64,000 nucleotides of DNA from a phage (GCA_009015555.1 GCA_009015555.1_3613.1), one strand, 5' to 3'; positions 4,547 to 61,955 are shown, counted from the first letter of the stretch. Numbers and translations are program-made. Notes: generated by a model not told the origin, from the sequence alone.

Positions 4547-4572
4547 AAGAAAAACCGCCCCGAAGGGCGGCT
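4547..4572 (-). terminator. Rho-independent terminator hairpin (CCGCCC-TTCG-GGGCGG family) with T-run on minus strand
   Basis: Minus-strand reading ccaagccgcccttcggggcggtttttcttttt directly after stop of 4577..5659 gene. Confidence 0.6.
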
Positions 4573-4576
4573 TGGG

Positions 4577-5659
4577 TTACAGAATGTTCGCCAGCGTTTT
4601 CTTCATCGCTGCCTTCTCACGAACGTTCTGGCGGTCACGGGCACAAGACCCGCATTCCTGACAACGGTACACCTTAAATTTGGACAGGAAGGTGTGGGCA
4701 GATTTGCCTTTTTCTTCCACCAAGTCGTCGGAACCGCAGCGTACACATCGCATCACAGACTGATCCGGGTGGAACAGGGCAATGTTAGGGTGCTTACGCA
4801 TAAACGGACGAACGGTCAGGTACAGTTCTTCCAATGTCGGGATATCCCCGATGTTGTACTCTTCCATTTCGTCGAATGCCGTAGGATCACCTTCCACACA
4901 GCGACGCCACAGACCGAATCCTTCGTGAGACAACTTACGGCTGTCCAGTTCGAAGTAGTTACACGCCGCTTCCAGTGCATTGGAAGGCAGAGAGAACGAC
5001 TCCTTCAGTGCCGCCAGTGTGTCGATCGTGATATATGGGCTTGGCGGTTGCATACCGTAATATGCGAAACGCTGGTTGGCCCAACCACGGTCGAAACGGG
5101 CGTTGTGTGCAATGAAGATATCACACTCGTCAAGGACTTGCCAGAGATCCTGAATCAGTTTTTTATCCGACTGATGATCCCGTTTGAACTCTTCCGGGTA
5201 GTCGGTCAGTTTACGACTGAAGATGGACGGGTTGTGCAGCCACTTCCCGGCGAACGTCAGCATGTACGGCTCTTGAATAACCTGCTTCGGCGCGATGAAT
5301 TGCTTGAAGCGACCAAACGAATAGGCGATGCTCGGAGAGGTCTCGACATCACCAAGGAACACTTTGGCACCCGGGTTATTTTCCTTCACCTTTTCGATGA
5401 AGGTTTTCTGGATCTCTGCCAGCGTTTTACCACCATTGACTTCCTGCTGCATAAAATCAGCGTACTCATCTGGTGTTGGGATACTGTCAATCAATTGTTG
5501 GACAGTTTCCAGATTACGTGCTTCCAGTTCACGCTTCAGCATGTTGCGTACAGTTGACTCTTGAGATTCCTTGCCCAGTTGACGGGCTACCTCGCGCTGG
5601 GACAACCCACCCTTCATCAGAGCCATAACCTGTTCAACAGTAAAAGTCACATTAGCCAA
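4577..5659 (-). CDS. DEDDy-type 3'-5' exonuclease with N-terminal HTH-like region and C-terminal Cys4 ribbon
   Basis: Exo I DVET, Exo II HNARFD, Exo III YNIGD motifs in order; C-terminal CVRCG...CQECG. Confidence 0.68.
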   Translation of the reverse strand: MANVTFTVEQVMALMKGGLSQREVARQLGKESQESTVRNMLKRELEARNLETVQQLIDSIPTPDEYADFMQQEVNGGKTLAEIQKTFIEKVKENNPGAKVFLGDVETSPSIAYSFGRFKQFIAPKQVIQEPYMLTFAGKWLHNPSIFSRKLTDYPEEFKRDHQSDKKLIQDLWQVLDECDIFIAHNARFDRGWANQRFAYYGMQPPSPYITIDTLAALKESFSLPSNALEAACNYFELDSRKLSHEGFGLWRRCVEGDPTAFDEMEEYNIGDIPTLEELYLTVRPFMRKHPNIALFHPDQSVMRCVRCGSDDLVEEKGKSAHTFLSKFKVYRCQECGSCARDRQNVREKAAMKKTLANIL

Positions 5660-5673
5660 AATTAATCTCCCGA

Positions 5674-5937
5674 TTACTTACAAAATTCGATAATGTCTAC
5701 CACGGCGAAGTCACGAACATCGTCTTTATCGACATCGTGCGCCTTGATGAACCACTGAGCGCCTTTATGGTACTCACTTTCCCCGTACCAGAACATTGGG
5801 GCACCCTTGATGGTTCGATAACCGCATTCACCTCTCCAGTTACGGTAGAAGAACCGAATGTTCGGGGCATCCAACCCCGCATACAGACTTCGATCGATCT
5901 TACTCATAAAGATAGTCTTCCTCCAATTTCCGGACAA
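5674..5937 (-). CDS. hypothetical protein (87 aa)
   Basis: ORF only. Confidence 0.4.
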   Translation of the reverse strand: MSGNWRKTIFMSKIDRSLYAGLDAPNIRFFYRNWRGECGYRTIKGAPMFWYGESEYHKGAQWFIKAHDVDKDDVRDFAVVDIIEFCK

Positions 5938-6469
5938 ACTCAGTGACGTAGATGGTGATCATCACGCCCTTGTCCAGGTTCTCGTCAATAACGATACCGA
6001 AGTTCAGGTAGGCGTTACGGGCGATAGTTTCCTTTGTCCACCTCTTGAGTGACTTCTTCAAGTCGGCGACAATCTCTCCGTGGAACTTATGGTGGAGATA
6101 GTCCCTTTCAAGATAGTCTGCCAGTCTACGCAGAGTTTCACTCATTGTCAACCCTGTTTTCCCTTCCATGTGCTTAGACCACAACTTCTGGACTCCGCCC
6201 TCGAAAAGATTAAGAGTTGACCCGATGACCCCACGGCATTTTCCGTCGTAATGGTCATGGTCCAAACATGGGTCCGCCATCGGCTCCCGCAGGATAGCAC
6301 AAAGACCACCCTGCTCCAAAAGGAGTTGATCCCGGTAGGCCGCAATACTCTTCGACCCAGAGACCCACTTATCCTTGCTCAAAGGTACACGAATCGGCGT
6401 TGTAGCCTTCACTTTAGCAGTGAAGCTGGGCTTCCTCGATCGCCTTCTTCTCCCTGTCCGTATTGCCAC
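5900..6469 (-). CDS. Recombination endonuclease VII-like (HNH-type) protein; start uncertain
   Basis: CAIL...DHDH...CRGV...N motif arrangement resembles T4 endonuclease VII zinc/catalytic core from memory. Confidence 0.62.
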   Translation of the reverse strand: MAIRTGRRRRSRKPSFTAKVKATTPIRVPLSKDKWVSGSKSIAAYRDQLLLEQGGLCAILREPMADPCLDHDHYDGKCRGVIGSTLNLFEGGVQKLWSKHMEGKTGLTMSETLRRLADYLERDYLHHKFHGEIVADLKKSLKRWTKETIARNAYLNFGIVIDENLDKGVMITIYVTEFVRKLEEDYLYE

Positions 6470-7058
6470 TAATACCCTCCATCGTCAGAGCGAAAAGGAA
6501 CTCCTCCCGGGTCGGGTTTTTGAAGTCCTCAAAATATCCCAGCATGGTCCGGCGGAACAGCGTAACAGGAAAGTCAAACTTATCCGACAGTGATCCGACA
6601 TTTGTACCGACGCCTGTACTGGTCAGGGCAATATCTGAACCCAGCCCGTTCCTGATCCTCTCATCGTTTTGCGTTAAGAGGAACATAGCCATGCCCGGTA
6701 TGTAATCTGATCTTTTGCAACGAGACATCACCTCTGCCAAGTTTTCAGGATACTCCATCCTCTCAAACCCCCGCCCGGTGACGAGGACCTCATCATAGAT
6801 GAGGCCCCTTGTCTTCTCTGCCCAAGACCATTGATTAGTGCAGTAAAAGTTGATCAGGAAATCAACATTCAGCACCTTGTCACGAACAATGATCTCGTCG
6901 AAGTGTTTCCTGTCTACAGACTCGTATGTTTTATCGCGGGAAAGAGTCCCCTGCAAAGAAAACCTCCAGTCCTGCTTATCACTCCGGTCGTAACACAGGA
7001 TAATCTTACGTGTTGCGTTCTTTAAGATTGAATCCCAGTCTTTCTCCGTTTCTCTCAA
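6414..7058 (-). CDS. hypothetical protein (214 aa)
   Basis: Long ORF in operon context; no motif recognised. Confidence 0.45.
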   Translation of the reverse strand: MRETEKDWDSILKNATRKIILCYDRSDKQDWRFSLQGTLSRDKTYESVDRKHFDEIIVRDKVLNVDFLINFYCTNQWSWAEKTRGLIYDEVLVTGRGFERMEYPENLAEVMSRCKRSDYIPGMAMFLLTQNDERIRNGLGSDIALTSTGVGTNVGSLSDKFDFPVTLFRRTMLGYFEDFKNPTREEFLFALTMEGISGNTDREKKAIEEAQLHC

Positions 7059-10852: not shown

Positions 10853-11229
10853 CAGTAAAGATCCTCGCTAAACAGTGTATCGTATGGCGCACCTTTTTTA
10901 CGCACCGTGTTGATCTGTCCTGCGTGAGTGGCAATGACCAGGGCATCTTGTCGGTTGTGATACTCTCCCCATTGGTCGATAAAACCCTGCTCTTCACCCG
11001 CTACAAAACGAGTAGAAATTTTATCTTCCAAGAGGTCAAGAACCTCAGCCATATCTTTGGAATAGTGACGAGACCCCGGAACTACCACAAAACCACCAGT
11101 CTTCAGTTCGAAGCGGTTGGCGGCACAAACAATCCGTCGCTGCAATTTGCGACCGTCCCACCAGTCGGCGATCTTATAACAAATTTCCGGGAGACCTTCT
11201 TTTACGGTATCTTCCATCAGTTCCTCCAA
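10852..11229 (-). CDS. hypothetical protein (125 aa)
   Basis: ORF only. Confidence 0.45.
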   Translation of the reverse strand: MEELMEDTVKEGLPEICYKIADWWDGRKLQRRIVCAANRFELKTGGFVVVPGSRHYSKDMAEVLDLLEDKISTRFVAGEEQGFIDQWGEYHNRQDALVIATHAGQINTVRKKGAPYDTLFSEDLY

Positions 11230-12522: not shown

Positions 12523-12593
12523 GATATTTCCTCTTTCGTTGTTTGATGGGAGTAGTATACAGGAGGGGAGGCAGGAGTCAAGAGGCAGATAAA

Positions 12594-12620
12594 GAAAAAC
12601 CGCCCCGAAGGGCGGTTCTT
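12594..12620 (-). terminator. Rho-independent terminator (hairpin CCGCCCCGAAGGGCGG plus T-run)
   Basis: Hairpin immediately after stop of 12621..12902 gene; same hairpin family as at 4547 and 22007. Confidence 0.55.
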
Positions 12621-12902
12621 TTAGTATTGATCTTCAGCGTAGCGGCGCTGATTTTCTGTGTTATCCACGTCCTTTAGCGTAAAGTTGTACTGCTCGCTAC
12701 GGACTGGGGCCGGGCGCGGTGTCGGGTCCAGATGGGCCAGCTTGACACCCGGCGGAATTTCATTGATGGTGAACGTGGTGTTGACCAGTTGTCCAGCCAG
12801 TTCATCCATACGCATGGAAACGAAGGCGGCTACGGAACGACCTTCACGGTCAGCCAGGAAACGCAGTTTTTCGAAGGTTGCATCGTTGAAGTTAATGTTC
12901 AT
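12621..12902 (-). CDS. hypothetical protein (93 aa)
   Basis: ORF only. Confidence 0.45.
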   Translation of the reverse strand: MNINFNDATFEKLRFLADREGRSVAAFVSMRMDELAGQLVNTTFTINEIPPGVKLAHLDPTPRPAPVRSEQYNFTLKDVDNTENQRRYAEDQY

Positions 12903-17077: not shown

Positions 17078-17292
17078 CCTACCCCCTTCATTCCCGCCCG
17101 GCACTCCGGGCAATACCAAACCCCGAGACCGGGGCATTCAGGATCTTCCACGTAATTATCAGGCTTATTCGATACAGTCACTGATTGACCGATCACCGCA
17201 CCCGGTATTTTGTAGAAACAGATATGCGGCCCAACACCATAGTGAGGGTATGAACCGTCTGCACAGTTACCACACATCGCGTTTCTTCCCAC
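17074..17292 (-). CDS. Cys-rich small protein
   Basis: CGNC...CPGLGVWYCPEC. Confidence 0.4.
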   Translation of the reverse strand: MGRNAMCGNCADGSYPHYGVGPHICFYKIPGAVIGQSVTVSNKPDNYVEDPECPGLGVWYCPECRAGMKGVG

Positions 17293-18508: not shown

Positions 18509-18550
18509 ACTATCTGACTGAATCTTGATAAAATGGGGGCGGAGGAACTC

Positions 18551-19201
18551 ATGAACGAAATGCTTATGCTTGGGCAGGCCAAAGCTAAAGCTGGCCTGGA
18601 TATTGATTTTGAAGACGCCGAGATTGGCAGCACCACGATTGTGGACAAGAACGGACATCCTTTCACACTCGTTGGTACTATCGCGACTGGTGGTGGGGTA
18701 GTCGAAGACCCCGAGGTAGGGAAGTGCTTCTACTTCCCCGGTACGGGATACTTCGAAACCCCTATGGTAAAGGACCTTCAACTCGCTGGAGTACCTGTCA
18801 TGATCGAGGCGGTATTTAAGTGGGACGGTGCCGCAGGAGGGTCTATCTGGGAGACTGGGAACTACCCCAGTGGACGACCACCAACACCCGGCATTTGCCT
18901 TAGTGTTGGTCAATACCCTGCTACGTACATCCAGTATTTCATGATGTATACCAACGGGTCTTGGGGCCGTGGCCTACCTCCAGCTACAACCTTCACCGGG
19001 GAATGGGAGACTGTAACCTTCCAACGGTCAAATGATGGAACGGGACCAATGGTTGTTTATCGCGACGGTGCCGAGTTCTCCAGGGTTGCCTTGGGTCCAA
19101 GCCCGATCGGTAATGGAAGCAAGCTGTCGGTTGGCGGGTCGTACACATACGGTGCCTATTGGAAGGGACGCCTGAAAAGTCTTAAAATTACACCACTCTA
19201 A
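18551..19201 (+). CDS. hypothetical protein with possible concanavalin/LamG-like fold
   Basis: GGAGGA RBS before ATG at 18551; C-terminal WKGRLKSLKI reminiscent of LamG domain ends; tentative. Confidence 0.45.
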   Translation: MNEMLMLGQAKAKAGLDIDFEDAEIGSTTIVDKNGHPFTLVGTIATGGGVVEDPEVGKCFYFPGTGYFETPMVKDLQLAGVPVMIEAVFKWDGAAGGSIWETGNYPSGRPPTPGICLSVGQYPATYIQYFMMYTNGSWGRGLPPATTFTGEWETVTFQRSNDGTGPMVVYRDGAEFSRVALGPSPIGNGSKLSVGGSYTYGAYWKGRLKSLKITPL

Positions 19202-19203
19202 CA

Positions 19204-19234
19204 AAAGGCCCTTGACGGGGCCTTTTTCTTTTTG
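19204..19234 (+). terminator. Rho-independent terminator
   Basis: aggcccttgacggggcct hairpin followed by ttttctttttg. Confidence 0.55.
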
Positions 19235-20160: not shown

Positions 20161-20211
20161 TATTCACAACGTTCCGGGGCACATTGCCCCAATTTAACTG
20201 AGGAGATTTAT

Positions 20212-22002
20212 ATGTTACATAACGACCTGCCTATCCTGTTTGCTGACTGGTACAAACCGAGCCATATTTCCATGTACAGCAAACAGTCTGAGATCGTACA
20301 AGACAACATGACCCCACGCTCAAGCAAACACTTTCAGCACTTTTCTGACAGTGACCAGCGCGTCATGTCTGCTGGCCTGCAAGGCTTTATTAAGTGGTTC
20401 CTGATTGAACACTTCAACCGTGAGTTCTTCGGTCGTCCGAAGGAAGAAGTTATCGGGGAGTTCAAAGAGATCTGTGACCTGGCGATCGGCCCAGACATGG
20501 TTGAAACGTGGGGCTTCGAAAAGCTGCATGACCTGGGCTATCTGCCTGTTGAAATCCGCGCCCTGCCGGAAGGTACTCTTTCTCCGGTACAAGTGCCTCT
20601 GTTCACAATTCAGAACACGCACCCGGACTTCTACTGGCTTCCTAACTACCTGGAGTCAGTGATCTCCTCTGAAAACTGGAAAACCGTAACTACGGCAACC
20701 ATTTTCTGGCAGTATCGTAAGCTGGCTGAACTGTGGGCGCAGAAAACCTGCGACAACAACCTGCACGTCCCGTTCCAGATTCATTGCTTCGCTTATCGCG
20801 GCCAGGCTGGCACTCACGATGCGGCCCAGTCTGAACTGGGACAACTGATGAACTCTCAGGGCACCGACACCATCCCGGCGATCCTGTATGCAAACCGTTA
20901 TTACGGTATGAAAGGCAAGTTCGTATCCGGCTCCATCCCGGCATCCGAGCACAGCGTTGCAACAACGAACATCGGGTTCATCATCGGACGCCTCCGTTCT
21001 GAGCATCCGGAAATGTCGCTGGATGACCTGCGTTTCCACGCAGAAGTCGAGTTCCTGCGCCGATACATCACTGAAATCTTCCCGAAAGGTTTCGTGTCTT
21101 ATGTCGGCGACAGTTATGACTGGTTCCGCCTGATCACTCAGGGTGTTCGTATCCTGAAAGACGAAATCATGGCCCGTGATGGTCGTGTGGTATTCCGCCC
21201 GGATTCCGGCGTACCGGAAGACATCATCTGCGGCACACTGGACTGGCGTAAGATTGAAGACCTCGACACGGCAGGTACTCTGGAACGCGCTGCCAATTGG
21301 GCACTGGAAAGTGCCGAAGATGAAGTTCGTGAGAACACCCCGCACGGTGAATGCGGTGATGAATCCGTTGAACGTTACTTCCTGTTCGATGGCGATCTGT
21401 ACCTGATGAAGGGTGAGATTGACTGGAACCGTCACGACAAAACGTATTACTACATCGACGGTCGCCGTGTTCTGTCTTACGAAAAGGCAGAACTCACTGA
21501 TGAGCAGAAAGGTTCTGTTGAACTGCTGTACGATGTGTTCGGTGGCGACCTGAACTCCAAAGGCTATCGTACTCTGGACACCCACGTCGGCCTGATTTAC
21601 GGTGACTCCATCACCGTTGCTCGCGCCAAAGAGATCTTCGAGCGCCTGGAAGCAAAAGGCTTTGCATCGAACAACGTTGTGTTCGGTGTCGGTTCCTTCA
21701 CCACCCAGTTCAACACTCGTGATTCTCTGGGTCAGGCAGTCAAGGCGACAGGCGCGGTTATTGACGGTCAGCAGATCATGGTCGTCAAAGAGCCTAAGAC
21801 CGACCTCGGCAAGAAGTCTGCTCAGGGCTTCCTGAAGGTTGTTCGTGGTGAAGACGGTGAACTGAAGCTGGTTGATAACCTCCAACTGGAGCAAGTCAAC
21901 GATACCGACAATGAACTGCGTGTGGTTTTCCGTGACGGCGTTCTGCTGGTTGACGAAACGCTGACTGAAATCCGTGAGCGTGTCACAGCAAACCTGAAAT
22001 AA
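20212..22002 (+). CDS. Nicotinamide phosphoribosyltransferase (NAMPT/NadV) family protein; candidate nicotinamide ADPR transferase (Namat)
   Basis: 596-aa NAMPT-family translation immediately downstream of the Prs-like gene; RBS GAGGAG; no NMN adenylyltransferase seen in window. Confidence 0.8.
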   Translation: MLHNDLPILFADWYKPSHISMYSKQSEIVQDNMTPRSSKHFQHFSDSDQRVMSAGLQGFIKWFLIEHFNREFFGRPKEEVIGEFKEICDLAIGPDMVETWGFEKLHDLGYLPVEIRALPEGTLSPVQVPLFTIQNTHPDFYWLPNYLESVISSENWKTVTTATIFWQYRKLAELWAQKTCDNNLHVPFQIHCFAYRGQAGTHDAAQSELGQLMNSQGTDTIPAILYANRYYGMKGKFVSGSIPASEHSVATTNIGFIIGRLRSEHPEMSLDDLRFHAEVEFLRRYITEIFPKGFVSYVGDSYDWFRLITQGVRILKDEIMARDGRVVFRPDSGVPEDIICGTLDWRKIEDLDTAGTLERAANWALESAEDEVRENTPHGECGDESVERYFLFDGDLYLMKGEIDWNRHDKTYYYIDGRRVLSYEKAELTDEQKGSVELLYDVFGGDLNSKGYRTLDTHVGLIYGDSITVARAKEIFERLEAKGFASNNVVFGVGSFTTQFNTRDSLGQAVKATGAVIDGQQIMVVKEPKTDLGKKSAQGFLKVVRGEDGELKLVDNLQLEQVNDTDNELRVVFRDGVLLVDETLTEIRERVTANLK

Positions 22003-22006
22003 TTTC

Positions 22007-22029
22007 AGCCGCCCTTCGGGGCGGTTTTT
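22007..22029 (+). terminator. Rho-independent terminator
   Basis: agccgcccttcggggcggttttt immediately after NAMPT-like stop. Confidence 0.7.
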
Positions 22030-22047
22030 AACTATCCGGAGGATGAA

Positions 22048-22206
22048 ATGAAACTGAATGAATCTCAGTATCTGGCGGCAAGAAAGGCGTTTGTGGAAAA
22101 TTCCGTATTCGATAATATCCGTATGTGGGTGGAAGATGGGCAAATGTCAGAGGATGAGCTTCGGGTGTTGATTGGAGAGATCTTCGCTCCCGTGGAGGTA
22201 GAATGA
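22048..22206 (+). CDS. small hypothetical protein (52 aa)
   Basis: ATG with GGAGGATGAA RBS; not in ORF track (<60 aa). Confidence 0.3.
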   Translation: MKLNESQYLAARKAFVENSVFDNIRMWVEDGQMSEDELRVLIGEIFAPVEVE

Positions 22207-22394
22207 GAAACCCAGTTGCACGAAACGACTTTAACCGGGCAGCAACGCACCCAGATCGCTCTAAGCGGCCTCAAAAGACTGTAGACGAGGGTTTGCTCGA
22301 CTACTTTGCAGAAAACGCTGAGAACGTCGCATACAGCGAATATGAACGTGCCTCTACAAACGCTCCGGGCGCTCCCCTTCCACCCGGGCGTTGA
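22203..22394 (+). CDS. hypothetical protein (63 aa)
   Basis: ORF with ATGA overlap to upstream small ORF. Confidence 0.3.
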   Translation: MRNPVARNDFNRAATHPDRSKRPQKTVDEGLLDYFAENAENVAYSEYERASTNAPGAPLPPGR

Positions 22395-22453
22395 CTATCA
22401 TTAAGTCCTCCAGTAAAATGACCATATCACTTGATTAACTTACTGTTGGACTT

Positions 22454-23161: not shown

Positions 23162-23190
23162 TTGACAAAGAGTAGAGCTACAGGTAATCT
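23162..23190 (+). promoter_or_regulatory. Candidate sigma70-type promoter upstream of tRNA array
   Basis: TTGACA at 23162-23167, 17-nt spacer, TAATCT at 23185-23190. Confidence 0.4.
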
Positions 23191-27066: not shown

Positions 27067-27091
27067 GCCCTCCTTCGTGGAGGGCTTTTTT
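27067..27091 (+). terminator. Rho-independent terminator closing the tRNA array
   Basis: gccctcc-ttcgt-ggagggc hairpin followed by tttttt. Confidence 0.65.
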
Positions 27092-27130: not shown

Positions 27131-27502
27131 ATGACAACTTTCATATTGAAGTACAAGAAGTACCTGATCGGCATCGGGGTCGCGGCCCTTCTGCTGTTCT
27201 CCTTTAATTGGTATGTCGGCACCAAGGAGGATGCGGCTTATGACCGTGGCTTTCAGTATGCAAACACCCAGTGGGAGAAAAAGGGAAAAGAGTACGTTGA
27301 TCTTATCGACAAAGGTAAGGCTGACAACACGGCTCTTAATGAAGAACTGGCTCGGGTATCTGAGGAAAAGCGTAAGCTGGAAGAAGCCCGCCGTCATAAT
27401 GTAAACGACAAACAGGTCGAATACAACAAAACTGAAGCCGCCCGGAAGAAAGGGTTGGACGATGACTTTGTGGATCTGTACAACGAATCCTTGGGGGACT
27501 GA
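27131..27502 (+). CDS. i-spanin-like (Rz-like) inner-membrane lysis protein
   Basis: AAAGGAGG RBS; N-terminal TM helix LIGIGVAALLLFSF then charged coiled-coil region. Confidence 0.58.
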   Translation: MTTFILKYKKYLIGIGVAALLLFSFNWYVGTKEDAAYDRGFQYANTQWEKKGKEYVDLIDKGKADNTALNEELARVSEEKRKLEEARRHNVNDKQVEYNKTEAARKKGLDDDFVDLYNESLGD

Positions 27503-27816
27503 TGAGAAAATTTATTCTCGGAATGTTCATGGTTCTGGCACTGTCAGCGTGCAGCAACAAAGACAGAATCCCAGAGGTTGCCTTCAAGGGCACCACGGTA
27601 GAAGACCTTGTAGATAAGCCGGACCGAGAGCTAATGCGTAAGGCTCCACCAAAGCAGTACCTCAAGAAAGGTACAGACAACGGTGAAGGCGCGGTTGTTA
27701 TAAGTAACAACAACTTGCGGGCAGCGACAGTCGAGCGCAGGCTCGAAGACCTCCAGCAATACGTCTGCAACCTCTTCCAAGACCCAGTTGGGGAAGTCTG
27801 CGTAAAGGGTAAGTGA
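27502..27816 (+). CDS. o-spanin-like (Rz1-like) outer-membrane lipoprotein
   Basis: Lipobox LALSAC after signal peptide; ATGA overlap with upstream i-spanin-like gene. Confidence 0.62.
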   Translation: MRKFILGMFMVLALSACSNKDRIPEVAFKGTTVEDLVDKPDRELMRKAPPKQYLKKGTDNGEGAVVISNNNLRAATVERRLEDLQQYVCNLFQDPVGEVCVKGK

Positions 27817-27824
27817 TTGTGCCA

Positions 27825-27858
27825 AAAGGCTCTCCATACGTGGAGGGCCTTTTCTTTT
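27825..27858 (+). terminator. Terminator-like hairpin with T-run
   Basis: ggctctcca-tacg-tggagggcc followed by ttttctttt; lies inside the TTG-initiated track ORF, supporting the later terminase start. Confidence 0.5.
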
Positions 27859-33188: not shown

Positions 33189-34187
33189 ATGCAAAACGGC
33201 GATTTCCAGATTCTCGACTACACTGGCCTGATCTCTACCATGCCACGTGTGGACACTCTGCTTCAGAGCATGAACCTGTTCACCGAACATTTCGGTCGTA
33301 CCACTGTTGCCCGTATCGAACGTCTGGATGACGGCGCTGGTGACATCAAGGCTGTTCAGCGTGGCGGTGTGCGTCAGCACCTGGCTAACGATCGTAAAAA
33401 GATCGTCAACCTGAACATCCCGTTCTTCCCTCTGGACCGTTCCATCGACCGTGCAGACATTCAGAACTTCCGTGAGTTCGGAACTGAGAATGCCCCTGCA
33501 ACTGTTGATGCGGAAGTTCAGCGTCACATGGCACGTATTCGTCGTAGCCACGCGATCCTGAAGTCCAAGGCCATGTATGCTGCCCTGAAGGGCACCTCTT
33601 GGTCTCCGGATGACCCGGTTTCTGACTACAACTACTACGAAGTTTGGGGCGCAACTCAGCAGACTGCTGACGTTGACTTCACCAAGCTGGGCGTAGACCC
33701 GATTGAAGTCCTGGAAGCTGAAGCACGTGCTCACATCATCGACTGGGCTGGCGACAACGGTGACAACTACGAGATCGTCGTTCTGGCGTCCCGTCAGTGG
33801 TTCTCCGCGCTGATCGCTCACCCGCAGGTGACTGGTGCGTACTCTCAGTACCCGTCAACTCAGGAAATGCTGCGTCGTCGTCTGGGCGGTAACGCTAACA
33901 ACCGTATCTTCGAGCACAAGAACATCCTGTTCATCGAAGACATTTCCGGGAACATCCCGGCGGGTGAAGCGTACATCTTCCCACGTGGTATCTCTCGTAT
34001 GTTCGAGATCTACTACGCGCCGAGCGACACCCTGCGTGACGCTAACCAGGTGGCTCAAGAACTGTACGTGTTCTTCAAAGAGTCCAACTACCTGCGTGAA
34101 GCGAAGATCGAGTCTGAGACTTCCTTCCTGACTGTGAACAACCGTCCTGAACTGGTTGTTAAGTCCACAGGTAAGTTCACTGCATAA
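33189..34187 (+). CDS. Major capsid protein (putative)
   Basis: 332-aa ORF with strong RBS, followed by strong terminator; position after scaffold/decoration genes. Confidence 0.6.
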   Translation: MQNGDFQILDYTGLISTMPRVDTLLQSMNLFTEHFGRTTVARIERLDDGAGDIKAVQRGGVRQHLANDRKKIVNLNIPFFPLDRSIDRADIQNFREFGTENAPATVDAEVQRHMARIRRSHAILKSKAMYAALKGTSWSPDDPVSDYNYYEVWGATQQTADVDFTKLGVDPIEVLEAEARAHIIDWAGDNGDNYEIVVLASRQWFSALIAHPQVTGAYSQYPSTQEMLRRRLGGNANNRIFEHKNILFIEDISGNIPAGEAYIFPRGISRMFEIYYAPSDTLRDANQVAQELYVFFKESNYLREAKIESETSFLTVNNRPELVVKSTGKFTA

Positions 34188-34189
34188 TT

Positions 34190-34222
34190 GGAAAAGGTCA
34201 CCCTCGGGTGGCCTTTTTTATT
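34190..34222 (+). terminator. Rho-independent terminator after capsid gene
   Basis: aaggtcaccctcgggtggcctt hairpin followed by ttttatt. Confidence 0.65.
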
Positions 34223-45872: not shown

Positions 45873-48317
45873 ATGGCAAGTGGAAACGTGATTGTCACCA
45901 AAACAGTCAACCGTACAACGTTTGAGGTGGACAAATCCTCGTATGCCCGGGCGGTCAAACAGATCCGTCAAGTTGGCAAAGAGTGGGAGAAGGCATCTGA
46001 TGCAATCTCTAAACCAAAGAAAGACCCGGCTAAAGCCTACGACAAATCAGCCCAGCAGATGCGCCTGGTGAATAAGCGCTTGGCAGAAACCCGCGCCCGT
46101 GAAGAGAAACGCGCCTCTGAACGCAGCATCGCGCTGGCCCGTCGAGAGGCGAAGGCCAAAGAAGCGATCGCCAAGGTATCCGCTGCTCGTATTAAGCAGC
46201 AGGTACAGCAGATGACCGCCCCTCGTGCCGGAATGAGCGAGATGAAGAAGTTCTACCAGCAGCAAGAGCGTGAGGCCAAGAAGGCTAACCGTAAAGCTAC
46301 GACTGGTATGAATGCAGCATCCCGTCCGATGAACGTTACCCGAATCAACTCTCTCCAACTGCCCCCTCGTGGTGGTCAGGGGACCGGAATGGTGGGTGAT
46401 CCGAATAAAGTTTACAACCCGGAATTGATCGCTGCCCAGAACCGTGCAATGGCAGGTCGAATCCGCAGTCAGTCTCAGGCCCAGGACCGCAGAACCAAGG
46501 CAGAGACACGCCGCAAGGCGGCTGAAGCGGCTCGTGCAGCCCGCATCGAAGATGTTATGGCACAACAGCGTATTCGTTTGTCATCCAAGTATGGCCGCAA
46601 CTATGCGGGCCGTCTTGGTGGAAATGCCGCTGGTCAAGGTATCCAAGATCTGAACCGTCAGTTCCGTACCGGGGCGCTGTCCGCCGGACAGTATCGCCAG
46701 AGTATTCAAGCACTGGAACGCCAGTTCCGTTCGGCACAGGCAAGTGCAGGCGGGTTTGGGGCCGTCATTGGAGACATCCGCTCCCAACTGTTGGGCGCAG
46801 GTGCAGCATACGGTGTATTTGCCGCAGGCGCAAGTGTTCTTCAACAAGGCCAGTTCTTCCAGGGTATGGATGCAACGATGACGATGGTTTCTGATTCATC
46901 CGAAGAAGCTGCAAAAAGAATCCAGTTCTTGAAGGATCAGGCTTATCGACTCGGATTGGATCTTAAAATCGCTTCTCAGGGCTACGTGCAGATGTCCGTC
47001 AACTCCGACGGTATCCTGAATAAGGCTCAGAACGATGAATTGTTCAAAGGCTTCTCTGAGTACGCAACGGCCCTTCAGGTTGACCCGGTTAAGTTCCAGC
47101 GTGGTATCACCGCGATCGGGCAGATGATGGGTAAAGGCCAGATCATGGCTGAAGAATTGAAAGGCCAGTTGGCTGAAGGTATCCCGGGTTCATTGCAGGT
47201 ATTCGTGAAGGCGTCTCAGGAAGCGTTCAACGACACCACCATCGACGTTGAAAAACTCATGGATATGATGCAGAAGGGTGAACTGAAAGCTGCCAAAGTT
47301 CTGCCATTCGTAGCCAAATACTTCGCCGAAGCTGCCCGTAACGGCGGCGCGTTGGATAAGGCATTGCAGAGCAACCGTGTGGCGATGCAACAGATGCAGC
47401 AGACGTGGGTTAACTTCCAGAACGCCATCTTCCAGGGTGGTTTCGGCGAGCAAATGACCCGTGTGTTCCGTGATCTCGCAACAATCCTTGATAGTAACGG
47501 TGAACTGGCAACCAACCTCGGGGCCTTCTTCGGCAATGTGATCGAGGGGTTCTGGGACATGGTTACAGAGATCCACGATGACTTCGTTCTGTTGGACCGT
47601 ATCGTCAGCTACTATGCTGAGAAACTCGGTTACCAAGGTGAACTCCTCAAGGATGTTTTCAACTGGGCAGGGTATGCAGTCGGCATGGCGATCTTCGTCG
47701 GCAGTCTCTACAAAATCTTCGGTATCCTTAGCAAAATCGCTGGACTGCGTGGTGCTCTTAAAGAGATCCGTGGTACAATGGGTGGCGATATGGGCGGAGG
47801 CCGTGGAGGAAGAGGTGGTAGAGGCGGACGTGGGGGCGGAGGCCGTGGAAATGGTTGGGGTGCTCCTCGCGGGGGTGGTGGATTCAAGCTGCCTGTTGTT
47901 CCTGGGCCGTGGCCTATGGTGGCAGGTATCCTTGGATGGAACTGGCTGAACGATGAGGAAGTTAACGCCAAAGCTCAGGCTGTAAATGAGTTCATGGCAC
48001 CTGCCCGTGCAACCCAGTCCCCTATCGAGCAAGCACTCACGGGGGACATGGGTCTCTTCATGAAGACAGCGTTCTACTCTTTGTTTGGTTCCAAGAAGGA
48101 AGCTCCAAGCACAACCATCGATCCTGAACGTTTGGTTACCGCTGGCGCTTCTGGGCCATATCCGGGGCCGTTCCCAATCAATCAGCCTCCTCAAAAGGTT
48201 GAGGGCAACGTGACCATCGAGATCAAGGCTGGCGAATTGAAGAACATGATTCGTGCCGTTGTTGATGAGAACAACCAGTTCAACTTCAACATGCTCATCC
48301 AGGGTGGGCCTAACTAA
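45873..48317 (+). CDS. Tail tape measure protein
   Basis: 814-aa largely alpha-helical/Ala-Gln-Arg-rich protein following chaperone pair; RBS GGAGGAGG; contains Gly-Arg-rich RGG segment. Confidence 0.72.
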   Translation: MASGNVIVTKTVNRTTFEVDKSSYARAVKQIRQVGKEWEKASDAISKPKKDPAKAYDKSAQQMRLVNKRLAETRAREEKRASERSIALARREAKAKEAIAKVSAARIKQQVQQMTAPRAGMSEMKKFYQQQEREAKKANRKATTGMNAASRPMNVTRINSLQLPPRGGQGTGMVGDPNKVYNPELIAAQNRAMAGRIRSQSQAQDRRTKAETRRKAAEAARAARIEDVMAQQRIRLSSKYGRNYAGRLGGNAAGQGIQDLNRQFRTGALSAGQYRQSIQALERQFRSAQASAGGFGAVIGDIRSQLLGAGAAYGVFAAGASVLQQGQFFQGMDATMTMVSDSSEEAAKRIQFLKDQAYRLGLDLKIASQGYVQMSVNSDGILNKAQNDELFKGFSEYATALQVDPVKFQRGITAIGQMMGKGQIMAEELKGQLAEGIPGSLQVFVKASQEAFNDTTIDVEKLMDMMQKGELKAAKVLPFVAKYFAEAARNGGALDKALQSNRVAMQQMQQTWVNFQNAIFQGGFGEQMTRVFRDLATILDSNGELATNLGAFFGNVIEGFWDMVTEIHDDFVLLDRIVSYYAEKLGYQGELLKDVFNWAGYAVGMAIFVGSLYKIFGILSKIAGLRGALKEIRGTMGGDMGGGRGGRGGRGGRGGGGRGNGWGAPRGGGGFKLPVVPGPWPMVAGILGWNWLNDEEVNAKAQAVNEFMAPARATQSPIEQALTGDMGLFMKTAFYSLFGSKKEAPSTTIDPERLVTAGASGPYPGPFPINQPPQKVEGNVTIEIKAGELKNMIRAVVDENNQFNFNMLIQGGPN

Positions 48318-48318: not shown

Positions 48319-48346
48319 CAAGGGGGCTTCGGCCCCCTTTTTTATT
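48319..48346 (+). terminator. Rho-independent terminator
   Basis: aagggggcttcggccccctt followed by ttttatt. Confidence 0.65.
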
Positions 48347-51380: not shown

Positions 51381-51914
51381 ATGGCTACTCAGTTTAAAGA
51401 CCTGCTCCTCGATCCCTTGACCGGGGATCTGGACTTCGGAACCCCGGGAGACCGGGGCATGAGACTGGCTCTTACGAACCAACTGTCCCTGCGCCAGCGC
51501 CTGTATTTGCGTTTCGCAATTTGGGCAGGGGATTGGTACTTTGACGAAACATTCGGATTCCCTTACCGGACCTTCATTGGCAAGAAAACGGTAAAGGCAG
51601 TCCTCGACGGAAGGATCAAGTCGGAGGTTCGGCAAGAGCCGGATGTTCTTCAAATCACCGACTTCCAGTCAACGATGGATGTGGTTGGTCGTTCGTATAA
51701 GTGCTTCTTCACCGTGGTGACTGCCGAAGGTGAAGAGATCAACTTGGCGTTCGTTGGTGAGGACCAGTACCAATATCCTACACCACCGGAGAGCAACGTG
51801 CAACTTTGCGGTGACGAAGGCGTCATCATCAATTTCAAAAACAAACTGTACTACCTTATTAACTTCCAACTGCCGAAATACGGTGACAGTACGTGGGTTA
51901 ATACTTGGAAATGA
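51381..51914 (+). CDS. baseplate protein (putative, 177 aa)
   Basis: Position. Confidence 0.35.
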   Translation: MATQFKDLLLDPLTGDLDFGTPGDRGMRLALTNQLSLRQRLYLRFAIWAGDWYFDETFGFPYRTFIGKKTVKAVLDGRIKSEVRQEPDVLQITDFQSTMDVVGRSYKCFFTVVTAEGEEINLAFVGEDQYQYPTPPESNVQLCGDEGVIINFKNKLYYLINFQLPKYGDSTWVNTWK

Positions 51915-51915: not shown

Positions 51916-51944
51916 AAAGGGAGCCTCTGGCTCCCTTTTCTTTT
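51916..51944 (+). terminator. Rho-independent terminator
   Basis: gggagcctctggctccc followed by ttttctttt. Confidence 0.6.
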
Positions 51945-57463: not shown

Positions 57464-60400
57464 GTGTCATCCAATACTGATATCATTGCCCTGTTGAGCA
57501 GCGATGCTGACAAGGCAGTTGACCAGATCATCGAAGACTCCAAACGTCTTCACATCGTGGTCAACGGGACGGGCACCGAGCAGGCTGTTGCAGAGGATGG
57601 GAGCTTGCTCCCGTCTGTTCGCAAAGCGCTGATCGACAACCTGTATTTCAAAACCCCACCTCTTCCCTGGAGAAACGGTGGGTCTGTCAACGAGTTCAAC
57701 CAGCTTTACTCCTTCACCGACGTAAGCGGGAACACCACTTGGTGGTATGCGCCCGGAGCTACGGTATCAAACCCGGTTGTGATGCGTGACAGCCCGATCA
57801 ATGACGGCAAGTTCAAGGTTTTCTTGGACAAAACCAACATCGCCGATATCTATGCCCCTCTGAACTCTCCGAACTTCGTCGGTAACCCCCGTGTGCCTAC
57901 CCCGGCCCCTGGCGACAACAGCCAAACCGTCCCGACAACCGGGTGGGTTCAGTCAGAGATGCAGGACCTGGAAGACCAGATCATTGCCTCTATGAAGGGT
58001 GATTTCGAAAACATCACCGTCCGTAACGATGCCGTTCTCAAAGACACGTATATCAGCGGTGAGTTCATTGTCACCAGTGATAAGTTGTCCGCTGCCAGCG
58101 CCGAAGCAACCTTCCGTCGTATTCGTGTGGTCGGCACCGCAGACAATACTGAGATCGCTTTTGAGCAGAACACCGCACCTCCAGCGGGGGCGAGCACAAA
58201 GACTAACATCAAGCCGTACACGATGTCAACAGGCATCTTGACGATTGACCAGTTGAAAGGAAAATCTGCCCAGATTGGTGATGTTGCTGTTGCCACGGAC
58301 TCCCTGAATGTCGATGGGTACATGCGTGGGGATTACCTGCATCTGGAAGGTAACAACCGAAACAGCACAACCCGCCCTCAGTTGATCGTTGATGGTATTG
58401 CAGAGATCAATACGCTGCGGGTGACTGGAACCATCGAGGGTGTAAAAGCTGATGTTGATGGCTTGGATATTCATCCTCGTAGTGTTATCATCGACGAAGG
58501 TTTGACGGTTGGCAAAGATACCTCCCTGACAGGAAAGCTGACTGTCGGCGGTACAACCAAGGTGAATAACCTGGAGGTTACTGGAACCCTGTCTGGTGTT
58601 GCTATCAGTGTTGACGGTAAAGACATCAAGCCCCGCTCTGTTAACACCGGGAACTTGGTTGCTACTGGCAACGTGCAGATCAGTGGGACGACCACTGCAA
58701 CCGGGAAGATCACAACTCAAGATCTTGAAGTGCTTGGCACACTGACAGCTAACCTCGACCTGTCCGGGTCGGATCTGAGTGTTGATAATATCAACGTTGC
58801 AGAAACCGCGACAATAAAGGATTTGGTGGTTACCGGAAAAACAACCGGGGTCAAAGGTGACGTTGATGGAACCTTGATCAAGCCTTCTTCTGTTCAGGCA
58901 ACGGGCCTTGTGTCAGCAGGTTCATTGTCTACCAATGCAAATGCCTCTATCGGGGGTAACCTGACGGTGACTGGAGAGTTCCGTCCCGCCAGCATGGAAA
59001 CAGGTGCAGTTGAGGCAGATAGTCTGGTTGTTAATGGTAACATTTCCCAGACGACAGGAACAACCTCTGTAGTCAACCTGGTTGTCACAGGAACGACAAC
59101 TGGCGTAACAGCCGATGTCAATGGTGACGACATTTTGCCTCGCTCCGTGACTACTACTGCGGGGGTTAAAGTCGGAACCACCCTCGACGTAACTGGAAAG
59201 ACTACCCTCGGAGATGTTGATTTCACTGGGGTTGTTACCGGGCTTGAACTTGATCTTTCTCAAAAGAACGTGACAGTTAAGTCAATTGCTGCTGTAGATC
59301 CTTCTGCATTTGGGGATGTGACGACAGATAATCTGACCAACAGCGAGAAGATCATCACTCAAGACATCCAAGTTCTGGGTGATATTCTGGATGCTGCGGG
59401 GAATCCTGTCAACACCTTTGATGTTACAGGCAAAGATATTCTGCCAAACAGTGTTCAATCTGCGACGTTTATTCGCGGAAAAACTCTGGACATCAGTGAC
59501 GGTTCCACCCTCCGTGGCCCTGTCGAGTTCCGTAACGGGCTGACAGTAACTCTTGGAGACATCATGTCGCCCCAAGGGAAGGCAACGTTCAACGATGTAC
59601 AGGTCAATGGTGCATTGACGGACGCTAACGGCAACGTCATCGGCTCCGTTGAAAGCATCAAGGGCAAGGACATTGAACCACGCTCCGTTGTGGCTACCGT
59701 GTCTGTACAGGCCCCTCGTCTCCAATCAACTGGGGATATTTTGGGCCAGAGCGCGACAATCACCAATAACGTCTCTGCGGGGACCTTGGGTGTTTCCGGG
59801 TTGACAAACCTGGCAGAAACTCGTGTGAATGCGAAGCTAACAGGGCAATCCACAGAGTTCGAAACTCTGCTCCTGAAGCGCGTTGCTGGTCAAGATACAC
59901 CTCGCTTGGTTGTGCAGGGGGATTCAGATCTCCAGGGGGACCTGAACGTCTCGGGGACCATTACCGGGATTGTTGACCTGACGGCTCAAGATATCCGTAT
60001 GAACAGCCTTGTGCTCGCCGAGGATCTTTCTGCAAGGAATATTACAGGATCAGGCACGGTTCAGGGCGCTAATGGAATTTTCGGCCAGTCTTCCCAGCCC
60101 ACCACCCAGTACGGTTTGCAGTCTCTTTCCAGCGCTAAGGTAGATAAAAACCTCGATGTTGGAGGAAACTTGCGGGTAACTGGGGCCATTACCGGAAGTA
60201 TGGACTTCACAGGGAAGGATATTACCCCACGGAGTGTCGCGGCGTCAGCCGGAATCGGGGCCGTGGATATCACGGCATCCGGCACGACAACGACGAAGGA
60301 CCTTGTGGTCACCGGGACGACAAGTTTTGCGGGAGACAGCGTTTTCAATGCAGGCCAGGTTAAGTCCAAGTTGTTCACCGTTGACATTGGTACTGATATC

Positions 60401-60688
60401 ACTTCAGGATCGGGGTCTTGGATTCCAGACGGGCTTCAGTCCGTTTATAACGTGACGGTTACCGCCGATACCGTTATCGGTTCCATTGCTCAGTTGCCGG
60501 GCGCGGGGACTTACTTCTTCTATATCGAGCAGGATGCTGTTGGGGGCCACACTGTGACCTTTGACCCAGCTTACCTCAAGATTGGTGATGGAGAAGTGGC
60601 TACAGCGCCAAACGCAATCTCTCTGGTCCAAGTAATCTACCGTGGTAAAGGTTCAATCTTCGACTACGTGATTCTTAACCGAGGTTAA
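57464..60688 (+). CDS. Long tail fibre protein with internal repeated modules (GTG start)
   Basis: 1074-aa protein with repeated VTGT..GV..DVDG.DI.PRSV units; RBS GAGGAG before GTG. Confidence 0.62.
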   Translation: MSSNTDIIALLSSDADKAVDQIIEDSKRLHIVVNGTGTEQAVAEDGSLLPSVRKALIDNLYFKTPPLPWRNGGSVNEFNQLYSFTDVSGNTTWWYAPGATVSNPVVMRDSPINDGKFKVFLDKTNIADIYAPLNSPNFVGNPRVPTPAPGDNSQTVPTTGWVQSEMQDLEDQIIASMKGDFENITVRNDAVLKDTYISGEFIVTSDKLSAASAEATFRRIRVVGTADNTEIAFEQNTAPPAGASTKTNIKPYTMSTGILTIDQLKGKSAQIGDVAVATDSLNVDGYMRGDYLHLEGNNRNSTTRPQLIVDGIAEINTLRVTGTIEGVKADVDGLDIHPRSVIIDEGLTVGKDTSLTGKLTVGGTTKVNNLEVTGTLSGVAISVDGKDIKPRSVNTGNLVATGNVQISGTTTATGKITTQDLEVLGTLTANLDLSGSDLSVDNINVAETATIKDLVVTGKTTGVKGDVDGTLIKPSSVQATGLVSAGSLSTNANASIGGNLTVTGEFRPASMETGAVEADSLVVNGNISQTTGTTSVVNLVVTGTTTGVTADVNGDDILPRSVTTTAGVKVGTTLDVTGKTTLGDVDFTGVVTGLELDLSQKNVTVKSIAAVDPSAFGDVTTDNLTNSEKIITQDIQVLGDILDAAGNPVNTFDVTGKDILPNSVQSATFIRGKTLDISDGSTLRGPVEFRNGLTVTLGDIMSPQGKATFNDVQVNGALTDANGNVIGSVESIKGKDIEPRSVVATVSVQAPRLQSTGDILGQSATITNNVSAGTLGVSGLTNLAETRVNAKLTGQSTEFETLLLKRVAGQDTPRLVVQGDSDLQGDLNVSGTITGIVDLTAQDIRMNSLVLAEDLSARNITGSGTVQGANGIFGQSSQPTTQYGLQSLSSAKVDKNLDVGGNLRVTGAITGSMDFTGKDITPRSVAASAGIGAVDITASGTTTTKDLVVTGTTSFAGDSVFNAGQVKSKLFTVDIGTDITSGSGSWIPDGLQSVYNVTVTADTVIGSIAQLPGAGTYFFYIEQDAVGGHTVTFDPAYLKIGDGEVATAPNAISLVQVIYRGKGSIFDYVILNRG

Positions 60689-60690
60689 TA

Positions 60691-60716
60691 CAGCCGCCTT
60701 CGGGCGGCTTTTATTT
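60691..60716 (+). terminator. Rho-independent terminator
   Basis: agccgccttcgggcggct followed by tttatttt. Confidence 0.65.
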
Positions 60717-60726
60717 TGGAGGTATT

Positions 60727-61923
60727 ATGTTTCCTTTTGCTATTATTCCACCGTTTGTTCTTTCAGGCAAGGAAAAAATCAAGCAGTTTTCGGTTACGTC
60801 TTACGACAGTATGGTCCTGACTGATAAGGGGAACCTGTATGTTACAGGATTCAACCGGGTGGGTGAGCTTGGTGTTGGGGACACAACTAACCGAAATAAC
60901 CAATGGGTTTTGGTAATGCAGGACGTAAACTGGATTGCAAGCAACCGTGAGAAGCTGTGGGCAATTAAGAACGACGGTTCCATTTACACCCCGGATCTTC
61001 GGTCATCCAGTACAACTGCATATACTTGGCAAATCGACACGGTAGCACCTGGAAGTATTGGGGATTTGTCTGGGGATAATATCAAGGAGATTTACAGCGA
61101 CACAGAGAGCGTATATATCCTCAAAAAGGATGGTTCACTGTGGTATCTGGGAAATAACTCTAAAGGCCAAGCTGGAAACGGGGGAACTTCCTTAACCACA
61201 CGCTTTGTGAAGGTTTCAGATGGTGTGGTATCTTGGTCATCCAGTGGACCCACTGTTGTTTTCGTGAAAACAGACGGATACTTCTGGGGCTGCGGATCAA
61301 ATTCCCGAAATATCATTTCCTCTGCTGGCAGCAGTATCACAACCCCTACCCGGATGTTTAGCACCACCCACGCTGACGGAGGTGTTGTAACAGATTACAC
61401 GCTGGCCTCTGACCAAGCGTTTTTGATCAGATATAGTAATGGTAAATATCGTACCAAAGGTCTCAATATCGGACAACTTCCTTCAGGGGATGCAAGTCCA
61501 TACAATACCCTTACGGACGTTCCTGACGGATACACCCCCGGTGATGGAACGGAGCCTCTGGTAAGCAAAACAGGAGGGGTGTCGGCCTCTGGAACTTGGC
61601 CTAACTATAGTGGTCTTTTCTTCTACCATACGGGAGGGAAATTCATAGTCACTGGTCAAGCAAGCGGGAGAATTTCCGGGACCAGCCAAACCAGCGGTAC
61701 ACTCTCAAACTGGACCAATGTCGATGCGGCAAGTGACGAGATCCCATCTATCAAGGGAATGACCTTCGGACTGGGTTGGGTTGCTGCCTACAACGATACG
61801 CAGATTCTGTACTGGGGGTATACGGGAAACTCCTCTGCATATCCGGTTGTGGGATACCTAATGCCCGGACCTTCAAGGCTTGAATATGTGGCACGTTTTG
61901 CAACCCCGCCGATCGAGGCATAA
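60727..61923 (+). CDS. RCC1-like repeat (beta-propeller) protein
   Basis: Recurrent G.N..GQ.G.G / LG.G units (GFNRVGELGVGD, GNNSKGQAGNGG, GLNIGQLPSG). Confidence 0.5.
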   Translation: MFPFAIIPPFVLSGKEKIKQFSVTSYDSMVLTDKGNLYVTGFNRVGELGVGDTTNRNNQWVLVMQDVNWIASNREKLWAIKNDGSIYTPDLRSSSTTAYTWQIDTVAPGSIGDLSGDNIKEIYSDTESVYILKKDGSLWYLGNNSKGQAGNGGTSLTTRFVKVSDGVVSWSSSGPTVVFVKTDGYFWGCGSNSRNIISSAGSSITTPTRMFSTTHADGGVVTDYTLASDQAFLIRYSNGKYRTKGLNIGQLPSGDASPYNTLTDVPDGYTPGDGTEPLVSKTGGVSASGTWPNYSGLFFYHTGGKFIVTGQASGRISGTSQTSGTLSNWTNVDAASDEIPSIKGMTFGLGWVAAYNDTQILYWGYTGNSSAYPVVGYLMPGPSRLEYVARFATPPIEA

Positions 61924-61926
61924 TAA

Positions 61927-61955
61927 AAAGGCACCCTAACGGGTGCCTTTCTTTT
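61927..61955. terminator. Bidirectional terminator between convergent genes
   Basis: aaggcaccc-taac-gggtgcctt hairpin flanked by A-run upstream and T-run downstream. Confidence 0.6.

Follow-up and report, generated by a model that had tools for sequence, protein, structure and literature searches.

Short GC-rich hairpins of much the same appearance recur between positions 4,547 and 61,955 of a 64,000-nucleotide phage sequence (GCA_009015555.1 GCA_009015555.1_3613.1; the whole stretch is called the window here), and they raise the question of whether they represent a common regulatory sequence, a set of recombination sites or an ordinary class of gene-end signal. In our reading, the hairpins are very probably canonical Rho-independent (intrinsic) terminators, acting on the host RNA polymerase that transcribes this Certrevirus phage. 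The observation is genuine, if unremarkable; hairpin terminators have already been predicted or annotated in this phage group.

Anatomy and placement of the hairpins

Twelve hairpin sites had been listed in an earlier note on this DNA, and every one (12/12) does hold a GC-rich stem-loop with a T-run after it in the direction in which the adjoining genes are read; the stem is of 6–13 bp and the loop, in most cases, a tetraloop. We also see two further, equally strong sites that were absent from that note, at 27828–27849 and 45810–45833. A strict scan for a hairpin plus T-run gave 20 hits (about 15 loci), compared to a mean of 0.55 in 20 dinucleotide shuffles, and the motif CCGCCC-N4-GGGCGG occurs four times in the window against 0.01 expected. 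All 14 sites fold as a single hairpin, with energies from -12.9 to -20.7 kcal/mol and z-scores from -2.4 to -5.9. The thresholds applied to an intrinsic terminator stem were at least 5 bp and a loop of 3–8 nt; there are 5–6 G-C pairs per site, and at least six T are found at every site in the 9 nt past the last G-C pair.

Placement is equally regular. The hairpin starts 1–11 nt past a stop codon at 11/14 sites, and two exceptions to this close spacing lie 42 nt past a gene for the phenylalanine transfer RNA (tRNA-Phe) and 37 nt past a stop. All sites with a T-run on one strand only (9/9) are co-oriented with their genes, and the sole site between convergent genes (60727..61923 on the plus strand and 61968..63200 on the minus strand) has a T-run on both strands. 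A scan of the window against Rfam returned only tRNAs, with no match for the hairpins. Two weaker candidates with poor T tails lie on the minus strand, at 1661–1678 and 63226–63243. One scan hit, 17120–17135 on the minus strand, was rejected as a false positive: it falls within a conserved Cys-rich (CxxC...CxxC) coding stretch, and relatives do not preserve the hairpin.

The label of terminator, already given to these hairpins in the earlier note, would appear sound, as it fits their position after stop codons, their strand, their stem, loop and T-run anatomy, the conservation of their stems and their retention of position in distant relatives, described below. They resemble enterobacterial and phage intrinsic terminators in having a GC-rich stem of 6–13 bp, a loop of 3–6 nt and a U-rich tail. 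As in those terminators, they lie on the coding strand just past stop codons, and the form is bidirectional where two genes converge. There is no essential difference from standard intrinsic terminators; the local peculiarities are very short all-GC stems, C(UUCG)G loops and a T-run with one C (TTTTTCTTT). Known intrinsic terminators include E. coli rrnB T1 and, downstream of the T7 capsid gene, T-phi; the hairpin at 45810–45833 (GGCTGGAGTC-GAAA-GACTCTGGCC) appears to resemble that of rrnB T1 strongly. C(UUCG)G hairpins were reportedly described in phage T4 intercistronic regions by Tuerk et al. in 1988. As in T4, a very stable tetraloop recurs between genes in the window, where five sites have the exact loop and others are UNCG-like (TCCG, CTCG). 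The differences are that another phage family is concerned, and that nearly all of the window hairpins have a T-run and so look like complete terminators rather than stable hairpins only.

Within the phage group itself, the GenBank record of Pectobacterium phage P7_Pc annotates a 'terminator' at 11138–11160 and another at 12584–12608, which are the counterparts of the sites at 39275 and 40721, and the record of phiTE has one at 120876–120891, again the counterpart of 40721. For the Certrevirus Pectobacterium phage CB7, 27 Rho-independent terminators have been predicted (PMC7344957), and for rV5 the number is 20 (PMC3606486). As far as we have read them, these papers and records list terminators from the same phage group and make no mention of several copies with a common sequence.

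The window belongs to Certrevirus (rV5-like myovirus, Vequintavirinae) and is about 96% identical to Cronobacter phage CR3. Megablast of 20000–28000 placed CR3 best at 96.6% identity, followed by CR8, PBES 02 and Enterobacter, Klebsiella and Pectobacterium relatives, and in a whole-window alignment the sequence is colinear with CR3 120185–149273 and then with CR3 1–36019. Judging by the CR3 annotation, replication and nucleotide-metabolism genes occupy the minus strand of window 1–18 kb, and nicotinamide and phosphoribosyl pyrophosphate (PRPP) genes, 18 tRNAs, spanins, terminase, and head and tail genes occupy the plus strand of 18–62 kb; the direction of transcription reverses again at about 61.95 kb. 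The predicted terminators are placed along this layout as follows (energies in kcal/mol; ORF, open reading frame; RBS, ribosome-binding site).

4552..4573, minus strand: predicted intrinsic terminator AAG-CCGCCC-TTCG-GGGCGG-TTTTTCTTTTT (-16.1, z -3.45); the hairpin begins 6 nt past the stop of ORF 4577..5659, a homologue of CR3 gp224 ('DNA polymerase exonuclease subunit'); five relatives have an identical stem and different adjoining flanks.
12595..12620, minus strand: predicted intrinsic terminator AAGAA-CCGCCC-TTCG-GGGCGG-TTTTTCTTT (-18.1), 5 nt past the stop of ORF 12621..12902; a weaker second T-run lies on the plus strand, and the CR9 counterpart has the same stem with the loop TCCG.
19203..19226, plus strand: predicted intrinsic terminator AAAA-GGCCC-TTGACG-GGGCC-TTTTTCTTTTT (-14.8), 3' of ORF 18533..19201, a homologue of the CR3 virion protein gp255; in four relatives without a gp255 homologue the hairpin is directly 3' of the gp254 homologue.
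22007..22029, plus strand: predicted intrinsic terminator AG-CCGCCC-TTCG-GGGCGG-TTTTT (-15.2, z -4.42), the hairpin beginning 6 nt past the stop of the nicotinamide phosphoribosyltransferase gene (20212..22002).
27067..27091, plus strand: predicted intrinsic terminator GCCCTCC-TTCGT-GGAGGGC-TTTTTTATTT (-15.4), closing the array of 18 tRNAs 42 nt past the last of them (tRNA-Phe, 26949–27024), with the motif TGATAAAATA at 27106; in four relatives the loop is variable and the stem kept.
27824..27858, plus strand: predicted intrinsic terminator AAAAGGCTCTCC-ATAC-GTGGAGGGCCTTTTCTTTT (-20.1, z -4.69), absent from the earlier note, between the spanin gene (27502..27816) and the terminase gene; the loop ATAC becomes ATTC in relatives.
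34192..34222, plus strand: predicted intrinsic terminator AAAA-GGTCACC-CTCG-GGTGGCC-TTTTTTATT (-20.3, z -5.94), the hairpin beginning 8 nt past the stop of the major capsid gene (33189..34187).
39275..39295, plus strand: predicted intrinsic terminator or attenuator CCGCCC-TTAG-GGGCGG-TTTTT (-12.9), the hairpin beginning 5 nt past the stop of ORF 38958..39269; it leads directly into an RBS, and no promoter-like site is seen.
40718..40745, plus strand: predicted intrinsic terminator AAA-GCCGCC-TCCG-GGCGGC-TTTCTTTTT (-17.2, z -5.01), 37 nt past the stop of the tail-fibre gene 39313..40683.
45807..45843, plus strand: predicted intrinsic terminator AAGGGCTGGAGTC-GAAA-GACTCTGGCCTTTTCTTTTT (-20.7), absent from the earlier note, preceding the tape-measure gene (45873..48317); the CR9 stem has a one-sided T.G to C-G change.
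48320..48346, plus strand: predicted intrinsic terminator AA-GGGGGC-TTCG-GCCCCC-TTTTTTATT (-16.0), 8 nt past the tape-measure stop, with the motif TGCTAAAATA following at 48358.
51916..51944, plus strand: predicted intrinsic terminator AAA-GGGAGCC-TCT-GGCTCCC-TTTTCTTTT (-17.0), 4 nt past the stop of ORF 51381..51914; neither hairpin nor T-run varies across five relatives, and the motif TGATAAAATA lies at 51961.
60692..60717, plus strand: predicted intrinsic terminator or attenuator A-GCCGCC-TTCG-GGCGGC-TTTTATTTT (-14.3), beginning 4 nt past the stop of the tail-fibre gene 57464..60688 and directly followed by an RBS; the module around it is swapped relative to CR3, whose equivalent hairpin reads GGCCC-TTCG-GGGCC.
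61925..61952, both strands: predicted bidirectional terminator AAAAA-GGCACCC-TAAC-GGGTGCC-TTTCTTTTT (-17.5, z -5.58), between 60727..61923 (plus) and 61968..63200 (minus); the CR3 counterpart has the same stem and the loop ATCC.

At such a site, the GC-rich stem with its stable tetraloop (mostly of the UNCG type, with one GNRA) would fold in the nascent RNA at the end of the gene, and the U-rich tract after the stem would give a weak RNA–DNA hybrid from which the transcript is released. The 3' hairpin remaining on the RNA may also protect the upstream message from 3' exonucleases. Distributed as they are, the terminators would divide the early/replication (minus strand, 1–18 kb) and late/structural (plus strand, 18–62 kb) regions into short units. 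Directly after the hairpins at 39275 and 60692 comes an RBS, and these two sites are therefore probably leaky attenuators that would lower expression of the next gene. Stop codons 4–8 nt upstream of a hairpin may let the terminating ribosome modulate hairpin formation.

Conservation and the extent of sequence sharing

Orthologous sites were aligned from five relatives (CR3, CR9, POP15, F1M1E and KaOmega), in which the anchor regions are 67–100% identical to the window. Variable columns make up only 3% of the stems (6/180) but 37% of the loops (19/52), with 12/104 in the T-tract, and in the flanks they number 55/325 over the upstream 25 nt and 72/221 downstream (range 17–33%). The loop changes are mainly among stable tetraloops, namely TTCG, TCCG, CTCG and TTTG. 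Two paired indels leave a perfect stem. At 48322, four relatives are without one G-C pair in both arms (GGGGC/GCCCC compared to GGGGGC/GCCCCC), and the CR9 counterpart of 40721 reads GCCGCCC/GGGCGGC compared to GCCGCC/GGCGGC.

As stems hardly vary within the genus, distant relatives were examined at two junctions. After the major capsid gene, a strong hairpin and T-run are present in 6/6 distant phages with 28–56% capsid identity (Av-05, rV5_ev147, Pseudoalteromonas J2-1, JLBYU50, ICP1 and PAK_P3), and each has a different stem; the PAK_P3 hairpin is annotated as "putative terminator" in its own record. At the exonuclease-subunit junction, which corresponds to the site at 4555, a terminator is found in 3/3 distant relatives, from Seunavirus, Vequintavirus and Phapecoctavirus, again with stems that all differ (GGGC-TTCG-GCCC in EspYZU14, GGGAGGC-GCAA-GCCTCCC in BP9 and GGGAGC-TTATT-GCTCCC in nieznany). 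Structure and position that are kept while the sequence turns over are the signature expected of intrinsic terminators.

The hairpins had also been described as a near-identical sequence family, and this holds for a small core only. An exact 21-mer, CCGCCCTTCGGGGCGGTTTTT, occurs at 4555 (minus), 12600 (minus) and 22009 (plus), and the site at 39275 differs from these copies by one loop base (TTAG). The remaining sites share a design and not a sequence: the stems at 40721 and 60693 are GCCGCC/GGCGGC, that at 48322 is GGGGGC/GCCCCC, and each of the five sites previously called related forms has its own stem, so that there are at least nine different stems among the 14 sites. A comparison of flanks found no extended homology between the identical copies past the hairpin and T-run. 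The 21-mer is present in at least 120 IMG/VR stretches, and among the matches listed 110 are without similarity to the window, with a GC content of 33–66% and unrelated flanks. By these matches, the 21-mer is a generic sequence.

Several observations weigh against the terminator reading or limit what it can explain. Classical base-pair covariation is nearly absent within Certrevirus, because the stems are almost invariant, and data from the genus alone do not tell selection on structure apart from selection on the sequence of the stem. Both termination and its efficiency are properties that we infer here. In addition, the CCGCCC stem is over-used. It accounts for 3/5 of the all-GC C(UUCG)G hairpins in the window, compared to 1/108 in an unrelated viral sample; among the matches listed, the 108 perfect all-GC six-pair C(UUCG)G hairpins with a T8 tail in viral contigs include CCGCCC once, CCCCGC 26 times, GGGCGC 21 times and GGGGGC 13 times, a sample that informs on composition only, as absolute frequencies of different stems are not comparable. 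The all-GC C(UUCG)G hairpin class as a whole is likewise dense, being found five times in the 64 kb window compared to about seven times in 1.87 Mb of unrelated viral loci, the latter being a small, unselected count. In the CR3 genome the CCGCCC stem is present at seven sites, with the loop TTCG at four and TTAG, TCCG and TCC at one each. Design alone does not explain this over-use.

The shared look of the terminators may best be seen as a stereotyped design of the lineage (a stem of about 6 bp that is all G-C, a C(UUCG)G loop and a TTTTTCTTT tail) and not as a shared recognition sequence. All five Certrevirus genomes have the CCGCCC copies fixed at their orthologous sites, and the same junction in other genera is without them; the re-use, which exceeds chance, is therefore old within the genus. 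The extra CCGCCC-TTCG-GGGCGG copies would reflect repeated use, particular to this lineage, of a single good solution that became fixed before the Certrevirus genomes split. This re-use could have been caused by copying through recombination or by repeated selection of the same solution.

Hairpins at the borders of variable genes

A further suggestion had been that the repeated hairpins are potential hotspots of homologous recombination. One case is suggestive, and the general claim has no statistical support once the length of gene junctions is controlled. The specific alternative considered was that the terminators double as short homology patches for the insertion, deletion or swap of gene cassettes, as a Vequintavirinae counterpart of the promoter-early stem-loop (PeSL) cassettes of T4-type phages (PMC2839356, PMC4122927). 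We consider this unlikely overall, while noting the following element.

39313..40683, plus strand: tail-fibre gene cassette (CR3 gp011 homologue), bracketed by the predicted terminators at 39275 (left) and 40721 (right).

The two brackets of this cassette read CATAATTAAT-CCGCCC-TTAG-GGGCGG-TTTTT at 39275 and CATAATTAAAA-GCCGCC-TCCG-GGCGGC-TTTCTTTTT at 40721, and both are preceded by CATAATTAA, a point in favour of the idea. The cassette is present in the window, CR3, CR8, PBES 02, P7_Pc and POP15-18, and is missing from CR9, Enterobacter and Pantoea phages of the F1M1E type, KaOmega, phiTE and DU_PP_I, where the counterpart of 40721 is a single terminator. In CR9 this single terminator has a hybrid GCCGCCC/GGGCGGC stem, and a topology of two terminators versus one is that proposed for PeSL-mediated excision in T4-type phages (PMC2839356). 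The tail-fibre gene is a candidate host-range cassette, and its bracketing by two related terminators is the single aspect here with broader interest.

Further alignment breakpoints within 30 nt of a hairpin or T-run, at 22028, 19203, 27126, 45856, 60735 and 61921, also favour the idea. At 22028 the downstream cassette is swapped from the end of the T-run, with a methylase in CR3 and other small ORFs elsewhere, those at 27126 and 45856 are insertions in relatives, and those at 60735 and 61921 belong to a swapped tail-fibre module. Junctions with a terminator were variable in 8/13 cases, compared to 26/87 without (p=0.03). However, the association is gone when only junctions of at least 30 nt are compared (8/13 and 14/33 variable, p=0.33), and breakpoints that leave genes intact must fall in spacers anyway. 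Identity between copies extends over only 16–21 nt with nothing alike beyond the hairpin and T-run, a length that just reaches, or falls short of, what efficient homologous recombination usually requires. Moreover, neither a deletion nor an inversion between the three identical 21-mer copies is seen in five relatives, and a terminator flanks the gp255-like cassette on a single side. Overall, one clear two-sided case (39313–40683) stands beside several one-sided ones among the elements that flank variable genes.

As in the T4-type PeSLs, intergenic stem-loops predicted to terminate transcription are seen at some indel boundaries, and one gene is bracketed by two elements where relatives have a single one. 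A PeSL, however, spans about 100 bp and combines its stem-loop with a strong sigma-70 promoter, and such elements cluster in hyperplastic regions of small ORFans. In the window the shared part is 16–30 nt, a linked sigma-70 promoter is lacking at most sites, the modules concerned are those of core replication and structure, and the enrichment of breakpoints is not significant. A composite of the PeSL type, with a strong sigma-70 promoter and stem-loop over about 100 bp, was not found among the copies, the similarity of which ends at the hairpin and T-run. One search of the literature for terminators at mosaic boundaries yielded no helpful result. The broader proposal, that stereotyped Vequintavirinae terminators of the form (G)CCGCC(C)-UNCG-(G)GGCGG(C) plus T-run double as micro-homology joints for cassette exchange, is a speculative one to which we give only a minor chance. 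If true, it could explain both the re-use of one stem at many sites and the gain and loss of 39313–40683 between phages with different hosts. The joints would also be a minimal, promoter-less analogue of the T4-type PeSLs and would carry the PeSL concept over to another large myovirus group, from a single example so far.

Two of these variable regions can be described further. The stretch 60045–61921 takes in the C-terminal end of the large tail-fibre gene (57464..60688) together with the gene 60727..61923; it has no DNA similarity to CR3, F1M1E or KaOmega, and is read here as a swap of a receptor-binding module that ends at the bidirectional terminator. The virion-protein gene 18533–19201 lies between the gp254 homologue and the terminator at 19207, has its own TGATAAAATG motif and RBS, and is found only in the window and CR3. 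The CR9 alignment breaks further upstream, at 18092, and in POP15, F1M1E and KaOmega the terminator is directly 3' of the upstream gene. This arrangement looks like a moron insertion.

Possible recognition sites or mobile repeats, and promoter-like motifs

The earlier note had suggested that the repeated sequence is a shared regulatory element, for example a common ribonuclease (RNase) or antiterminator recognition site. In this alternative, CCGCCC-TTCG-GGGCGG would be bound sequence-specifically by a phage or host factor (an RNase, an antiterminator or a DNA-binding protein) that co-controls several transcripts. The three exact 21-mers and one loop variant in the window speak in its favour, as do the seven CCGCCC-stem sites in CR3, the over-representation of the stem relative to the unrelated phage hairpins listed (1/108) and the keeping of the stem at orthologous sites in five relatives. 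Nonetheless, only 3–4 of about 14 sites share the sequence, most terminators of the genome are without it, and orthologous loops vary freely (19/52), with TTCG changed to TCCG in CR9 and TTAG to TCAG in P7_Pc. Unrelated stems are found at the same junction in the Seunavirus, Vequintavirus and Phapecoctavirus relatives, and the retention of position and structure without sequence argues against a sequence-specific recognition site. The presence of the 21-mer in at least 110 unrelated viral contigs across a GC content of 33–66% is likewise expected of a generic stable hairpin and not of a factor-specific site. For an RNA processing or antitermination site (RNase III, or nut/put-like), no one sequence or structure common to the 14 sites was found, and no Rfam match; stems of 6–13 bp are too short for RNase III substrates. 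We judge a recognition site to be highly improbable.

The least plausible alternative, that the hairpins are a small mobile repeat of the repetitive extragenic palindromic (REP) or miniature inverted-repeat transposable element (MITE) type spread through the genome, would account for an identical core at several sites on both strands, but the units are only 16–26 nt without terminal repeats or target duplications, every copy directly follows a stop codon, is oriented with the coding strand and carries a T-run, and the copies are stable at orthologous sites in five genomes with flanks that are dissimilar between copies.

Returning to the hairpins as intrinsic terminators, several are followed by a recurrent motif. 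The motif TGNTAAAATA has five matches, at 27106, 30993, 41374, 48358 and 51961, all on the plus strand in the late/structural region, where 0.27 would be expected. It follows the terminators at 27067, 48322 and 51919, such that 3/5 copies lie 20–40 nt downstream of a terminator, and the close variants TGATAAAATGG, TGATAATATAC and GTTATAATTG follow those at 40721, 27828 and 45810, respectively. TGNTAAAATA matches the late-promoter-like motif TggTAaAAtA of rV5 (PMC3606486) and is probably the late promoter of this phage group. An adjacent sigma-70-like promoter is seen only at the sites at 12600 (TTGACT-16-TATACT, 12581..12554, after the terminator) and 19207. Transcription could restart at the promoter-like motif that follows seven of the terminators. 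Together, the map of about 14 terminator sites and the downstream TGNTAAAATA motif would define the likely transcription units of the phage. The map also flags the two probable attenuators before tail-fibre-associated genes, with little significance beyond annotation.

Finally, two features near the terminators can be described. The tRNA array, which the terminator at 27067 closes, has 18 genes at 23478–27024 and differs from that of CR3 by small indels and by an HNH endonuclease gene that is present in CR3, with none in the window. The weaker minus-strand hairpin at 1661–1678, CCGGGGC-ATTG-GCCCCGG, lies just after a sigma-70-like promoter (TTGACA-17-TATTCT, 1714..1686, minus strand) and before an RBS, with a poor T-run. 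It is kept in five relatives though the 200-nt upstream anchor is only 67–74% identical in four of them, and it may be a stabilising hairpin of the 5' untranslated region rather than a terminator.

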